In this document: one piece after another, positions 28,734 through 37,588 of the stretch
Position numbering within the stretch: the stretch's first letter is position 1
Layout of the letters: the number at the start of each line of letters is the position of its first letter
Program-made: the position numbers and the translations under genes
Notes under the pieces: generated by a model
What the model saw: the letters and a program-made list of their open reading frames with translations, nothing else
Told to the model about the DNA's origin: nothing
Database searches by the model: none
Source: a virus
Taxonomy: Duplodnaviria; Heunggongvirae; Uroviricota; Caudoviricetes
IMG/VR virus record: IMGVR_UViG_2563366827_000004
Coordinates: 1-37,588 of that record
Length of the DNA stretch: 37,588 bases
Reading direction: 5' to 3' (one strand)

Positions 28734-29102
28734 ATGGTTGGAACCGCTATAGCAAGCTTTTTTGGGATGTTGGCAATCTCGACAATTTACGGCTTAGCGC
28801 ATGCTTTTATTGCGAAATCTCTATCAGAAAAAATAAGCCAGGCTTGGGCGCATAGATCAGCTCGTTTCATGATTCTGGTGATCATAGCAATACAAGGGAT
28901 ATCTGCATTTATCCTCTATGGATCAAGCTTATACCTATTGTATCAAGGCGCGACATTTACGCCTTACACCAGTGATTACGGAACTCTATACGATGGTAGT
29001 GAAGACATCACTGTGGCTTGGATCGTCTTTGGTTTATCTATGGCCGTGTCTGTTGTAGCAGACATCATTAAGGTAATTCTCGTCTTAACCTTCGCTGACT
29101 AA
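28734..29102 (+). CDS. Hypothetical 3-TM membrane protein, rexAB-position gene
   Basis: 122 aa; AGGGGG RBS 5 nt upstream; starts 18 bp after the cI stop; three hydrophobic segments (about aa 2-27, 45-70, 92-120). Confidence 0.7.
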   Translation: MVGTAIASFFGMLAISTIYGLAHAFIAKSLSEKISQAWAHRSARFMILVIIAIQGISAFILYGSSLYLLYQGATFTPYTSDYGTLYDGSEDITVAWIVFGLSMAVSVVADIIKVILVLTFAD

Positions 29103-29233
29103 CCTATAATCCCGGCAGCAATAGCTATCGGGATCCACTTCACATATCCCGCATAAAAAGCACTGAACAAGCAGACACCGAAAAAATAAATATCCTTTGT
29201 ATTCATTTGCTTATCATTATTTCATCAAAAATA

Positions 29234-29275
29234 AATACCTTGGGTATTTACACAATAAAATACCTACAGTATTCT
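29234..29275 (+). promoter_or_regulatory. OL operators and pL promoter
   Basis: AATACCTTGGGTATT (29234-29248) and AATACCTACAGTATT (29259-29273), same palindrome family as OR; -35 TTTACA (29247-29252), 17 bp, -10 TATTCT (29270-29275). Confidence 0.6.
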
Positions 29276-29321
29276 TTAGCCATCAGCAGGAAGCTGGAAG
29301 CCAAACGGAAAAGATTGGCAG

Positions 29322-29362
29322 GCTCTTTAACATTGATGGGATTGTCCCGCCGAAATGCGGGA
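29322..29362 (+). promoter_or_regulatory. nutL (boxA GCTCTTTAACA and boxB hairpin)
   Basis: boxB TCCCGC-CGAAAT-GCGGGA is identical to the nutR boxB. Confidence 0.7.
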
Positions 29363-29469
29363 ACCAAAGAGTAATTGGCTTTGGGGTGACGTGAAGTGCA
29401 GCTGCACGACGGCAACCGGAAGATAAGCACCCGGCGCGTCACCGCCAAAGTCAATCATCGGAGGTCAAC

Positions 29470-33776: not shown

Positions 33777-34070
33777 ATGCCAGCGCCTCTGTATGGTGCG
33801 GATGACGCGCGCCGCTGTTCCGGCAATTCCGTATCGGAGGTGCTGGATAAATTCAGAAAAAACTACGATCGAATAATGTCGCTACCGCAGGAAACGAAAG
33901 AGGAAAAGGAATTTCGCCATTGTATATGGCTTGCAGAGAAAGAAGAACGCGAGCGAATTTACCAGACATCAATCCGACCATTCCGCAAAGCCACATATAC
34001 CCACTTCCCTGAAATTGACCCGCGCCTGCGTAATTACCGCTCACGCTATGGCGCTATCAGTAATGACTGA
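33777..34070 (+). CDS. Hypothetical protein
   Basis: 97 aa; AGGAG RBS 6 nt upstream. Confidence 0.5.
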
Positions 34071-34080
34071 GGAATTTACC

Positions 34081-34245
34081 ATGAGAGGACTTGCATACAA
34101 TCCCGGCATTCTTCCGGCAGAAATGATTATTCGCCAACGCGTAAAGCCAATGCCATCGAGAGAGGAATTGCTCAAGAGAAATTCTTTTCCATCAGTAAAT
34201 CAAAACAAATATCTGAATGCGATGTGGCGGAGTGGGAAGAAATGA
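34081..34245 (+). CDS. Hypothetical small protein (54 aa)
   Basis: ATG 34081 after GAGGAA; start choice uncertain (alternative ATG 34060). Confidence 0.35.
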
Positions 34246-34778
34246 AACAAATGTCACTAATTGAGATGGATGGATTTCTGAAAGGTAAATGCATCCCACG
34301 AGATTTAAAGGTTAACGAAACAAACGCTGAATATCTGGTGCGTAAATTTGCTGAAGCGGAGGCCAAGATTTCGGCTCTGTCCGAAGACCACCAGAAAGCG
34401 ATTGAGTCAATTAAGCAGGCTGATGCGGCTGTTAAGTTGGCACACGAGAAGTTTTCGGCGCTGGCGGCGGAGAATGCGGGGCTGAAGTCTGGCGCTATGG
34501 ACGAAATCAAGGTTATCAACCGTGGAGGGCAGGCATATTGCGTAAAAGATGGAGTGCAAGTTAATCCCATGTATGCAAGAGGGTGGAATGACTATCGCGC
34601 AAAGTCTATGCAATCAGACACCCCAGCCACCGATGCTTTCCTGACTGAAATTGAACGCAAAGCAATCCGAAAGTTCATTAACAGCATTGAACACATCCTG
34701 CGTGACAAGTTGTCACCGTATGACACCGAAGAGATGCTTGAGACTATGCGTATTTTTCTGGAAGAACAGGGAGGCTAG
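34242..34778 (+). CDS. Hypothetical protein (178 aa)
   Basis: ATGA overlap with the upstream stop; GGAG RBS. Confidence 0.55.
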
Positions 34779-34783
34779 CAAAA

Positions 34784-35098
34784 ATGACAATCACAAAACA
34801 ACGAGTAGAAAAAATCATATATCGCCATGAAATGGGACTGAACAGCGATGTCACTGCCGAAGAGGTTTATGACCTGGCTGTACTGGCGCTGAATTTATCA
34901 AATATCGCAAACCTGAAGCGATACGAGCTTGATATGGGAGGTTGCGACTCGTGCGGTCAGGATTGTGGCGCTGACATGACTGAAGATTCTGATGGCGATT
35001 ATGTCCTGTTTGATGACGTGGTTAAGTTGTTTGAGTTTGATACAACCACTCAGAAGTTAGAAGGCCCAGCAAAGGAGACAACCAGTGAGCGAAATTGA
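34784..35098 (+). CDS. Hypothetical acidic protein (104 aa)
   Basis: ORF with RBS; cysteine cluster CDSCGQDCG. Confidence 0.5.
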   Translation: MTITKQRVEKIIYRHEMGLNSDVTAEEVYDLAVLALNLSNIANLKRYELDMGGCDSCGQDCGADMTEDSDGDYVLFDDVVKLFEFDTTTQKLEGPAKETTSERN

Positions 35099-35981
35099 CT
35101 ATCAGGCACTGCGTGAAAAGGCAGAGAAAGCAACGTGTGGGGTGTGGTCGCTCGAATATGGAGAGAGCCGATTTGATTGTGATGATGCGCTAATTCATCG
35201 TGACGTTGTTGGATATATTCCCATTTGCAGAATTGAAGGAGCGCATCCTGAAAGCGGTTTCGATGAAGATTTCCAAATGGAACAGCAGGCCAATGCTGAA
35301 TTCATCGCCGCAGCCAATCCGGCTACTGTGCTGGCACTACTGGATGAACGGGAAAGAAACCAGCAATACATAAAACGCCGCGACCAGGAGAACGAGGAGA
35401 TTGCGCTAACGGTAGGGAAGCTGCGCGTTGAGCTGGAAGGCAAAGACAAGCTGATTGCAGAGCTTAGAAAACAATGCGCTGAATGGGAGCGAAAAGCATT
35501 AAGCAACTTTGAAGAGTGTGCTGCGATGGCTGAACGTATCGAAGAGTTGCAGACAAAATCTGCACCAGATTCGTTTGGCATCATCGGTGAAAATATTCGA
35601 ACACAGGATAATCGAATAACGTCAGACCCTATGTTTTGTGTGTATCAAAAGCGCGAAATCGTTGTTGATGCTGATTATGACTATGACCGGATTGTCTGGG
35701 TTGATGAAGATGGCAATGAAGCCAATAAACGCCAAAGTCGTCGTCTCGAACTACTTCACGAAAACTTTCGAGAGCCACCAGAAAAGTGGCGGCGCGTTGC
35801 TGTGAAAGATATTGATGAATTCGTTACCTGCTGTTTCACCGAACAGGGTTGTAAAGATTACCTGGCAGTCAATGGTCACAATCTTCGCTTGCCATTTATA
35901 TATGTAAAAAGTGGTTTCAGGAACGCTGAATATATCGGCATAAGAAACTGGCTTGCTGGCATTCGCATCAAAGGAGAGTGA
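35085..35981 (+). CDS. Ead/Ea22-like protein
   Basis: 298 aa; GTG start after AAAGGAGA; block ANAEFIAAANPATVLALLDERE is characteristic of Ead/Ea22-like prophage proteins. Confidence 0.65.
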   Translation: MSEIDYQALREKAEKATCGVWSLEYGESRFDCDDALIHRDVVGYIPICRIEGAHPESGFDEDFQMEQQANAEFIAAANPATVLALLDERERNQQYIKRRDQENEEIALTVGKLRVELEGKDKLIAELRKQCAEWERKALSNFEECAAMAERIEELQTKSAPDSFGIIGENIRTQDNRITSDPMFCVYQKREIVVDADYDYDRIVWVDEDGNEANKRQSRRLELLHENFREPPEKWRRVAVKDIDEFVTCCFTEQGCKDYLAVNGHNLRLPFIYVKSGFRNAEYIGIRNWLAGIRIKGE

Positions 35982-35982
35982 G

Positions 35983-36174
35983 ATGAACGGACAAATATCA
36001 ATTGTTCGACCGGGAGCATGTGACGATTGCGAGATACGAATGATTATTCGTCTGGCGATGGGGAAAACAATAACTGCTCTCATTACTCCTGAAAATCTCG
36101 CATTAGCATTAACAGGAAAGTCAGACCTGCCAGTAGAGCTAAAGCTGCGAAACGTTGAGATTAAAGTGAAATAG
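35983..36174 (+). CDS. Hypothetical small protein (63 aa)
   Basis: ATG 35983 after AAGGAGAG, 1 bp after the upstream stop. Confidence 0.45.
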   Translation: MNGQISIVRPGACDDCEIRMIIRLAMGKTITALITPENLALALTGKSDLPVELKLRNVEIKVK

Positions 36175-36176
36175 TT

Positions 36177-36701
36177 ATGAATACTCTTACCAAAGAATGG
36201 TTACAGAACACGATTACCAGCATTGAGTCAGCACGGGATGAAATACCGTTCGGACTCAATGAAGATCAAAACAACATGCTTACCGCATTAAAAATTGCAC
36301 TGACATCGCTGGAAGCAGAGCCGGTGGCATGGAAGGCAACCTTCACGCAAATTGACAATGAATATAATACATTCACCACTATGTATTCTGACAAAGCAGA
36401 AGTCGAACGCTGGGTGCGACTGCATGAAATAGGTGACTTTCGGGCAGAAATAACACCGCTTTACGCAGCGCCGTCAGCGCCGGTAATTCCGGATGGTTGG
36501 ATAAGCTGTAGTGAGCGGATGCCAGATGATGGTCAGCACGTAATTATTTTATGTGATGGCGCATTCGTTCTTTATGCGCAATATCGAGACGGAGAGTTTT
36601 TCGATATTGTCCGCAATGGTGATGAATTTTTCGAAACACAGAGTCGCAATGTAACCGACTGGATGCCGCTGCCAGAACCGCCGGAGCAGGATGGTGAATG
36701 A
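36177..36701 (+). CDS. DUF551-like phage protein
   Basis: 174 aa; C-terminal part (DGWISCSERMPDDGQHVIILCDG...DWMPLPEPP) resembles the DUF551 family seen in lambdoid early-left regions. Confidence 0.55.
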   Translation: MNTLTKEWLQNTITSIESARDEIPFGLNEDQNNMLTALKIALTSLEAEPVAWKATFTQIDNEYNTFTTMYSDKAEVERWVRLHEIGDFRAEITPLYAAPSAPVIPDGWISCSERMPDDGQHVIILCDGAFVLYAQYRDGEFFDIVRNGDEFFETQSRNVTDWMPLPEPPEQDGE

Positions 36702-36787
36702 TGCCGCCAGTTAAAGTTGTGATTATCACTTTGGTGATGATAGTGATTGCGAGAATCATGTCTGGTGAAATTGGGTGGATATGGTAA
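36698..36787 (+). CDS. Possible 29-aa hydrophobic peptide
   Basis: MMPPVKVVIITLVMIVIARIMSGEIGWIW; ATG overlaps the upstream stop; single predicted TM helix. Confidence 0.3.
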   Translation: MMPPVKVVIITLVMIVIARIMSGEIGWIW

Positions 36788-36888
36788 TGACCATGGCAGC
36801 AGCAGATCGCAACTAACAATCCTCGCACTCGCGGGGATTTCTTTTATCTGAACTCGCTACGGCGGGTTTTGTTTTATGGAGATGATAA

Positions 36889-37056
36889 ATGCACTTTCGA
36901 GTCACAGGTGAATGGAATGGAGAGCCATTCAACAGGGTTATCGAAGCAGAGGACATCAACGACTGCTATAACCACTGGATGATATGGGCGCAGATAGCGC
37001 ATGCAGACGTAACCAATATTCGAATTGAAGAACTGAAAGAACACCAAGACGCCTGA
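36889..37056 (+). CDS. Hypothetical small protein (55 aa)
   Basis: ATG 36889, 7 nt after GGAG; followed by a hairpin and T-run. Confidence 0.4.
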   Translation: MHFRVTGEWNGEPFNRVIEAEDINDCYNHWMIWAQIAHADVTNIRIEELKEHQDA

Positions 37057-37069
37057 TGGCGGTTTTTTT
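37050..37069 (+). terminator. Weak hairpin plus T7 run (CGCC-TGAT-GGCG then TTTTTTT)
   Basis: Seen directly; stop codon of the 55-aa ORF lies in the loop. Confidence 0.35.
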
Positions 37070-37080
37070 GGGGGTAGTAG

Positions 37081-37296
37081 ATGGCTGCAATTCACATTGT
37101 CTCAATAATATGCAATGCAATTCAGATAGTTGCTTGCATTATCTTTGTTTTCTCAATCCTTCGCTCCCGACGATATTCTCCAGCAATTAACCGACATCCT
37201 GCACAGGTTGAAGCCGTCAGGATGGCTATAGAGTTACGAAATGAGATGAATAAGGCATTAATGGAGATGGAGAAACCATTCACTGACAAACATTAA
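37081..37296 (+). CDS. Small membrane protein (71 aa)
   Basis: MAAIHIVSIICNAIQIVACIIFVFSIL: N-terminal TM helix followed by a charged helical tail. Confidence 0.5.
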   Translation: MAAIHIVSIICNAIQIVACIIFVFSILRSRRYSPAINRHPAQVEAVRMAIELRNEMNKALMEMEKPFTDKH

Positions 37297-37358
37297 GAGT
37301 GTAAATAAAGAAATCACACCGCCTCACACTCGATGAGGCATGTACATATCTGATAGAT

Positions 37359-37381
37359 CCGCTATATGGCGGTTTCTTTTT
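37359..37381 (+). terminator. Weak hairpin plus T-run (CCGC-TATATG-GCGG then TTTCTTTTT) upstream of xis
   Basis: Seen directly; same GGCGGTTT motif as the element at 37050. Confidence 0.3.
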
Positions 37382-37396
37382 GCCTGGAGAATTAAG

Positions 37397-37588
37397 ATGA
37401 CCGATACCAGCCTGATTCCTGAGAAAGAAGTGATGAACAAGCTCGGTGTTTCATCACGTCAGACAATCTGGAACTATACCAAACGGCACGGATTTCCGAA
37501 GCCAGTCAGAACCCACCCCAAATCATACCTTCGTGAAGCTGTTGAAGGGTGGATTCTTAACGGTGGCGTTAATCAGAAATGCTCCTGA
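37397..37588 (+). CDS. xis: Excisionase / AlpA-family DNA-binding protein
   Basis: 63 aa from MTDTSLIPEKEVMNKLGVSSRQTIWNYTKRHGFPKPV...; GGAGA RBS; last gene before the expected int; stop is the final triplet of the window. Confidence 0.65.
   Translation: MTDTSLIPEKEVMNKLGVSSRQTIWNYTKRHGFPKPVRTHPKSYLREAVEGWILNGGVNQKCS

Follow-up and report, generated by a model that had tools for sequence, protein, structure and literature searches.

Small open reading frames upstream of xis in a P22-like Escherichia coli prophage: probable mosaic accessory modules of an early-left operon

What do the small open reading frames (ORFs) crowded in front of the excisionase gene of a lambdoid prophage encode, and do they belong together? 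Lambdoid accessory regions are full of small genes of unknown function, and the stretch of 37,588 nucleotides (nt) analysed here (virus record IMGVR_UViG_2563366827_000004 of IMG/VR, positions 1 to 37,588; hereafter the window) ends in such a region. An initial annotation had drawn attention to three ORFs of 29, 55 and 71 amino acids (aa) as small hydrophobic proteins that might kill the host, interfere with its division or exclude other phages, in the manner of Kil and DicB. All three are present exactly where it placed them (36698-36787, 36889-37056 and 37081-37296; plus strand, as are all features below unless stated otherwise), each with a plausible ribosome-binding site. The early-left region of a lambdoid phage that it proposed as their setting is also confirmed, since they occupy the accessory tail of such an operon, just 5′ of an AlpA-type xis. 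The window is from a P22-like (Lederbergvirus-type) lambdoid E. coli prophage, and the interval with the three ORFs is probably a mosaic accessory tail of its early-left (PL-type) operon.

When we compared the region pairwise with about 150 related loci, module boundaries appeared that separate the three ORFs from one another. A module carrying the 29-aa ORF (orf29 module, 36672-36812) is followed by a constant unit (36813-37069), by a cassette carrying the 71-aa ORF (orf71 cassette, 37070-37318), by a segment common to two different cassettes (37319 to about 37350) and, from 37366 on, by the leader and gene of an AlpA-type xis. We found no public record covering at least 80% of 36100-37588. 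The constant unit is composed of two tandem terminator-like hairpins, the 55-aa ORF (orf55) and a terminator, and is near-identical in lambda (about 29,100-29,370), HK140 and E212. For a census of the slot between orf55 and xis we used 80 IMG/VR loci chosen through orf55. The slot was empty in 58 of them, with xis directly after orf55, and was occupied by a phrog_1229 gene in 18 and by orf71 in 3; three different xis types occur after it, and the orf29 module is found upstream in only 6 loci. The three ORFs, which the initial annotation had treated as one group, thus assort independently and therefore do not form a functional set.

None of the three had been matched to a recognised family, a statement that we have to revise for two of them. 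The 55-aa ORF (36889-37056, GGAG 7 nt upstream) aligns over its full length with phrog_676 (positions 1-55 of 55, E-value 9.3e-39) and is 94.5% identical over 55 aa to the protein of lambda NC_001416 29121-29285, and likewise to 'ORF55' of phage 434. Judged by this similarity, it is lambda orf55 (lambdap35). The label of small hydrophobic proteins fits the 29-aa and 71-aa ORFs and fails for this one, which sequence analysis describes as a small acidic protein, soluble as the initial annotation had itself remarked. Its ratio of non-synonymous to synonymous polymorphism (pN/pS) is 0.24, with an excess of synonymous changes (P = 0.02), and orf55 thus evolves as a protein. It has no meaningful match in Pfam, NCBIfam or PADLOC. 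Relatives with 36-53% identity occur in Morganella, Pseudomonas and bat-gut phages, and the two distant ones that we inspected lie near the promoter end of an early-left operon, not beside xis. AlphaFold2 predicts, with high confidence, a beta-beta-alpha-beta arrangement (strands 2-9 and 12-19, helix 23-37, strand 41-49; predicted local distance difference test 90.7). The window shares with lambda the two upstream hairpins, the ribosome-binding site and the downstream terminator of orf55. However, the lambda gene stands immediately 5′ of xis, whereas in the window a 296-bp cassette (orf71 and a xis relic) lies between, and the window xis is of the AlpA type, not the lambda type. Lambda orf55 (NP_597778), the last ORF of the exo-xis region, was outside the genes tested in a lambda CRISPR interference screen (PMC10695390).

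The 71-aa ORF (orf71, 37081-37296, GGGGG 6 nt upstream) matches phrog_15342 from end to end (positions 1-71 of 71, E-value 6.7e-52), a family without a characterised member and without a Pfam or NCBIfam model; searches of Pfam, NCBIfam and PADLOC gave no meaningful match. The gene is rare. A set of 5.8 billion proteins yielded 3 clusters and IMG/VR 31 loci (at least 93% identity), and 79 of 5,426 complete E. coli genomes carry the gene, unannotated among the RefSeq rows listed; no relative was found among GTDB species representatives. About 30 of 32 loci have an intact frame, and one in-frame insertion of 6 nt was seen; within the lineage pN/pS is 0.44 in frame versus 0.64-0.96 in the other forward frames. 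An exhaustive HMMER search recovered one diverged relative, P0132 (74 aa, 46% identity over residues 1-67, E-value 1.3e-11), labelled at NCBI 'TPA: hypothetical protein ACGR33_003510' from E. coli. Its gene lies in a different E. coli prophage (locus L155), integrated beside fimZ, where it closes an early-left-type operon: the start codon overlaps the stop of the preceding gene, and a helix-turn-helix (HTH) excisionase begins 2 nt after the P0132 stop, followed by the integrase. The relative was not found in the 5,426 complete genomes of E. coli.

When we compared orf71 with the P0132 gene, nucleotide identity by codon position was 0.58/0.70/0.37, and pN was 0.34 against a (saturated) pS of 0.84. 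In the other two frames pN was about equal to pS, and 4-7 stops were present. The codon-position pattern, together with pN below pS in one frame, shows that orf71 is a real protein-coding gene. Full-length matches to PHROG families and selection at the protein level place both the 55-aa and the 71-aa ORFs beyond chance. Two further candidate relatives were rejected: in L034 (64%) the copy is truncated at 37188, with unrelated DNA and insertion-sequence-type transposase ORFs upstream, and the L035 match (48%) falls by chance within an integrase gene of high GC content. A 55-aa antisense ORF (37122-37289) was likewise set aside, as it has a low codon score and no conserved counterpart in L155. 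The L034 breakpoint recurs in four listed E. coli genomes (H181-H184), where the truncated orf71 abuts a gene for a 'phage DNA ejection protein'; this form is what remains of a rearranged prophage, and it has either spread or arisen more than once.

The initial annotation had described the 71-aa product as an N-terminal transmembrane helix with a charged tail, and both hydropathy and the AlphaFold2 prediction agree. The best 19-residue hydrophobic window covers residues 6-24 (mean Kyte-Doolittle 2.66) and is followed by RSRR, a linker and a charged amphipathic tail, while the structure prediction places helices at residues 2-31 and 40-63. Conservation between orf71 and P0132 is 52% in the membrane helix and 54% in the C-terminal helix and falls to 20% in the linker. 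Both proteins have a membrane helix with a polar stripe, an HPAQ..AV..A..LR.EM motif, a similar length and a place directly 5′ of xis-int. Six conserved polar or cysteine residues of the orf71 membrane helix (H5, S8, C11, N12, Q15 and C19) fall within a 120-degree arc (P = 0.013, for a statistic picked after the alignment had been seen). Since positive charges follow the membrane helix, we infer a single-pass inner-membrane protein with a predicted N-out/C-in orientation, in which a cytoplasmic amphipathic helix would come after the membrane helix. The polar face would most likely serve in helix-helix contact, either with a second copy of the protein or with a host membrane protein. A holin would be encoded in a lysis cassette beside an endolysin, whereas orf71 lies at the end of the early-left operon, and gene order places the late genes (the lysis genes among them not being singled out) far off on the minus strand.

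The orf71 cassette (37070-37318) is an optional insert that consists of the GGGGG ribosome-binding site (37070-37074) and the 71-aa ORF. It is missing in lambda and HK140, in which 37069 is joined directly to 37366, and in E212 a phrog_1229 gene takes its place. The phrog_1229 protein, of 114-123 aa, is the commoner alternative occupant of the slot (for example at 1881-2252 of L001 and 2392-2736 of L074), and its gene is followed by the same segment of xis relic as orf71. The two edges of the slot (37050-37069 and 37362-37380) carry the identical short sequence ATGGCGGTTT and a T-run, and HK140 has a single hybrid copy of this terminator sequence where both edges join. The repetition at both edges and the single hybrid suggest that cassettes are gained or lost by recombination between the two terminator copies.

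Downstream of orf71, the interval 37305-37397, which is joined to the leader of the AlpA-type xis, reads IKKSHRLTLDEACTYLIDPLYGGFFLPGELR. In L155 the orf71 relative is natively followed by an excisionase that begins MESHSLTLDEACAFLK, and on this resemblance we regard the interval as the relic of the N-terminus of a different, HTH-type excisionase. Over about 45 nt of the relic the two lineages agree at ~90%, against only 55% identity for the orf71 genes themselves, which indicates that the cassette was transplanted with the 5′ end of its own xis. It would have come from a phage in which the gene lay immediately before xis-int, bringing the first ~15 codons of that xis along. The joint between the relic and other xis modules is at about 37347-37351. 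An inverted repeat at 37320-37340, which we had considered as a bidirectional terminator or regulatory hairpin, is coding sequence of this excisionase relic. In 23 of 26 haplotypes position 37302 is a G, giving a GTG-started ORF of 33 codons (MEIKKSHSLTLDEACTYLIEPLYGGFFLPGELR). Its start lies 3 nt past the orf71 stop, its own stop shares ATGA with the xis start codon, and it might still couple translation into xis. In the window a TAA at 37302-37304 (codon 2) closes this frame.

When would such genes be expressed? The two tandem terminator-like hairpins upstream of orf55 (36818-36869; 36818-36839 and 36850-36869), detected by a terminator scan and within a strong predicted fold (z-score -3.07), are each followed by a T-run, the second of which extends into the ribosome-binding site of orf55. 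Lambda (about 29,290-29,365; L069), HK140 and E212 have the two hairpins almost base for base, and they occur in 80 of the 80 IMG/VR orf55 loci; no covariation was seen in them, the sequences being too similar to show any. They may correspond to a named lambda terminator such as the classical tL3. A third hairpin resembling an intrinsic terminator (37048-37069, CGCC-TGAT-GGCG followed by seven T) spans the orf55 stop and forms the left edge of the slot; it is annotated as a rho-independent terminator in phage HK140 and kept in lambda, HK140 and E212, and in 21 of 26 haplotypes a C at 37049 gives a longer stem. A further one (37359-37380, CCGC-TATAT-GGCGG and a T-run), just 5′ of the xis ribosome-binding site, repeats TGGCGGTTT of the left edge. 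In total, 35800-37588 contains 6 terminator-like sites where 1.6 are expected. No sigma-70-like promoter was found on the plus strand of the same interval by a consensus scan, a crude search that weak or non-sigma-70 promoters could escape, and no Rfam family was found in 34000-37588 at a permissive threshold.

Start codons in this region are coupled to upstream stops or follow them closely; orf71, for example, starts 24 nt after the stop of orf55, which is itself bracketed by terminators. The lack of a detected plus-strand promoter, the terminators around orf55 and the native coupling of the orf71 relative point to expression on induction or infection. All three ORFs would then be transcribed only by antiterminated read-through from PL, and not in a repressed lysogen. 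Such timing disfavours a classical exclusion function encoded by the prophage and acting from the lysogen, and it fits an early host-directed function; Orf55, for its part, would act soon after induction, with a host or phage protein as its binding partner.

The 29-aa ORF (36698-36787) translates as MMPPVKVVIITLVMIVIARIMSGEIGWIW, with a grand average of hydropathy (GRAVY) of 1.60. It overlaps the stop of the DUF551 gene (36177-36701), as the initial annotation had stated, its ATG sharing ATGA with the TGA stop, and an AGGA lies 6 nt 5′ of the start. With a mini-ORF of 9 codons, it makes up a mobile unit of about 140 bp (36672-36812), whose joints (36646-36690 on the left, 36812/36813 on the right) fall on gene boundaries, as they do for the real genes of the region. 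Of 5,426 complete E. coli genomes, 222 carry the module. Among the RefSeq rows listed, the orf29 match has no annotation except that of the upstream gene, under four different product names, and the upstream genes that accompany the module share their terminal sequence (PLPEPP in the translated loci). The frame is open in nearly all loci, with ATGATG, TAATG or GTG at its start; the exceptions are one locus without a start codon, both ATGs being lost, and one with a stop at W29. Three forms of coupling to the upstream stop occur: ATGA, TAATG and GTGATG, the latter with GGAGG. Only 4 sites of 60 vary in the core (codons 5-24), the catalogued changes there being 4 synonymous events and one conservative M-to-I replacement, and nucleotide diversity (pi) is 0.019 (0.006 in the core) versus 0.16 upstream and 0.12 downstream. 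No family match was found in Pfam, NCBIfam, PHROG or PADLOC searches. The exact peptide has been deposited as 'Uncharacterised protein' SRY66074.1, on 293 contigs, which means that some annotation pipelines do call the ORF.

Two minor features of the module were also seen. The mini-ORF (36785-36814) reads MTMAAADRN in the window and MAKAAAERN in most loci; it overlaps the orf29 stop in TAATG, ends at the TAA that begins the orf55 module, and looks like the scar of a deleted gene. Four loci (L048, L063, L064 and L070) have one G fewer in CCGCCGGAGCAGG (36684 region), which puts the DUF551 frame out of register and moves its end to 17 nt within orf29 (…PPSRMVNNAAS*), and these loci always pair with the TAATG form of the orf29 start.

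Several observations weigh against the explanation that we favour and have to be set beside it. Neither orf71 nor orf29 is annotated as a gene among the listed RefSeq rows, which come from the Prokaryotic Genome Annotation Pipeline, and the codon-usage scores of both are intermediate between those of real genes and spurious ORFs. For orf71, one premature stop and two stop losses occur among the 32 loci. Within the E. coli lineage 12 of 35 events are synonymous (23 non-synonymous) where 8.6 are expected (P = 0.12), so that the coding signal of this lineage alone is only suggestive, and the case for coding largely rests on the single diverged relative. Its topology and polar stripe are predictions, the latter chosen with hindsight, and the crudeness of the promoter scan bears on the proposed timing. 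For orf29, one locus lacks a start codon, and no diverged copy was found, tblastn (phages included) giving near-identical copies only. A pattern allowing all synonymous variants of 12 core codons returned 19 matches in 241 million metagenome records, all from one DNA lineage, and with a single lineage the coding status of orf29 cannot be shown and is unproven.

By a rough estimate, an ATGA-coupled open frame of at least 29 codons arises by chance at ~6% of gene ends; because of this estimate and the intermediate codon score, the 29-aa ORF taken alone is not beyond chance, and it is the conservation and mobility of the ~140-bp module that lift it above chance. That it is no gene at all, the module being conserved non-coding DNA or a recombination scar between DUF551 and the orf55 terminators whose GTGAT repeats happen to read Val/Ile/Met, falls in our estimate just short of an even chance. 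Such a reading would account for the absence of synonymously diverged copies from both the metagenome records and phages, for the locus that lost both ATGs, for the missing annotation and the codon score, and also for a strongly structured RNA (the fold z-score of -3.07 applies here as well) and for the scar-like 9-codon fragment behind the frame; the low diversity may simply reflect a young module. It sits poorly with a start that stays coupled to the stop in three different forms, with core changes that are synonymous but for one conservative replacement, with diversity well under that of both flanks, and with joints that coincide with gene boundaries. We put the chance that orf29 is translated and functional at about one half; if so, it may be a translationally coupled membrane peptide. 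A type I toxin under antisense RNA control is, by comparison, hardly credible. The peptide is suitably small and very hydrophobic, and the only promoter-like site of the region lies inside the ORF on the opposite strand (36764 to 36737). However, that site matches at only 9 of 12 positions, where shuffled sequences yield a mean of 3.7 such sites against the 1 observed, no minus-strand terminator lies 3′ of it, no Rfam or toxin family is matched, and the ORF is start-stop coupled within a long operon without a leader of its own.

The proposal of the initial annotation, that the hydrophobic ORFs and perhaps all three are host-kill, division-blocking or superinfection-exclusion peptides of the Kil/DicB class, is in our assessment tentative: a possibility for orf71 and orf29 by analogy, and one that does not fit orf55, which is soluble and acidic. 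The operon is of the same kind as those of lambda Kil, Qin DicB and Qin YdfD, the conserved polar face of the predicted orf71 membrane protein is of a kind expected in a pore or a binder of a membrane target, and orf29 resembles small membrane toxins in size and hydrophobicity. On the other side, the three ORFs have no sequence relation to Kil, DicB, KilR, Hok or holin families (all Pfam and NCBIfam scores stay within noise) or to defence models (no PADLOC family), orf71 evolves under relaxed constraint with occasional disruption, and no promoter-like site for expression in the lysogen was found, a weak negative given the scan. Nor did the three peptide sequences match anything in literature full text or in the supplements of the ribosome-profiling paper on O157:H7 Sakai. 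A more specific version, in which the orf71 family would be a membrane-embedded counterpart of Kil and DicB, co-expressed with the excisionase at induction, whose polar face inhibits a host inner-membrane protein (of the division machinery, a transporter or the route of phage DNA entry) or forms a pore, and in which the 29-aa frame would serve a like end as another, independently mobile membrane peptide, we consider unlikely. Distinctly less probable is a function for Orf55 as an inhibitor of host RNA polymerase like T7 Gp2, proposed previously on a modelled structure of the lambda protein (PMC8614690). The predicted fold is of the same kind, the BFVD list includes three annotated inhibitors of RNA polymerase (ranks 15, 16 and 35), and the position of distant relatives early in the operon would suit a takeover function. 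All BFVD matches, though, fall short of an E-value of 0.001, no Pfam or NCBIfam family is matched, and the paper itself calls the model speculative, one of the two critical arginines of Gp2 being an asparagine in Orf55 (PMC8614690). Orf55 is similar in size, acidity and general fold to several small beta-beta-alpha-beta inhibitors (T7 Gp2, AcrIE2, phi29-type p56 and T4 Dmd), and the Gp2 resemblance seen in the models does not appear specific. The mosaic accessory tail, with orf55 as a lambda gene and orf71 as a real gene for a predicted membrane protein, remains the explanation that we prefer.

Neither Kil nor DicB is known to span the membrane. Among effectors from operons of this kind, lambda Kil has been named as a division inhibitor (PMC10695390), Qin DicB acts on proteins of the inner membrane and blocks infection by phages (PMC6832061), and Qin YdfD is a 63-aa lysis protein that is lethal when expressed (PMC8835842). 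The three ORFs resemble them in operon, size range and accessory status, yet show no detectable sequence relation to them. YdfD comes nearest to orf71 in form, being also a two-segment protein of ~60-70 aa encoded late in such an operon.

Morons are extra genes between conserved neighbours, classically with a promoter and terminator of their own. The orf71 cassette is moron-like in being present or absent between orf55 and xis, in alternating with phrog_1229 and in the terminator-like hairpin that follows it. Unlike a moron, it has no detected promoter of its own, and natively the gene is an ordinary coupled member of an operon. Indeed, the P0132 gene is start-stop coupled to both of its neighbours, whereas orf71 in the window is a transplanted cassette behind a terminator. 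The cassette behaves as an exchangeable part of an operon, not as a moron with autonomous expression.

For a phage specialist the region holds no surprise: it holds what such lambdoid early-left operons ordinarily carry as accessory content, plus one gene that is experimentally tractable and of modest interest, and orf55 (a lambda gene) and phrog_15342 (an existing, uncharacterised family) were already known. The useful result is orf71, a gene that is real by its divergence pattern, is unannotated among the RefSeq rows listed, has a testable predicted architecture and is natively coupled to xis-int. It offers a small, tractable candidate for a phage-host interaction at the membrane and an example of the blind spot of automatic annotation for small genes. 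For orf55, the window shows that the gene and the terminators on either side of it move together as one fixed unit. Lambdoid phages repeatedly carry cargo in the slot between orf55 and xis, which could be mined for more accessory genes.

The surroundings of the three ORFs are typical of the end of such an operon. Large minus-strand ORFs occupy the first ~27 kb of the window, where the genes for structure, lysis and replication would lie, and the early-left operon runs on the plus strand; the orientation is read from gene order. Upstream of the three ORFs lie an Ead/Ea22 gene, a 63-aa phrog_1222 gene and the DUF551 gene (36177-36701; Pfam DUF551, E-value 1.2e-20), the last ~10-30 nt of which are a recombination joint common to other upstream genes with an identical ending. 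Downstream, xis (37397-37588; Pfam Phage_AlpA, phrog_66), for an AlpA-type excisionase or regulator with an HTH, ends at the last base of the window, and in related loci a minus-strand integrase gene converges on it with a 20-nt overlap of its 3′ end. The phrog_1222 ORF (35983-36174) also matches the C-terminal end of phrog_11564, annotated as a DNA methyltransferase (E-value 4e-6), and at a comparable place in a related E. coli prophage (L004) we found a Lar-family restriction-alleviation gene.

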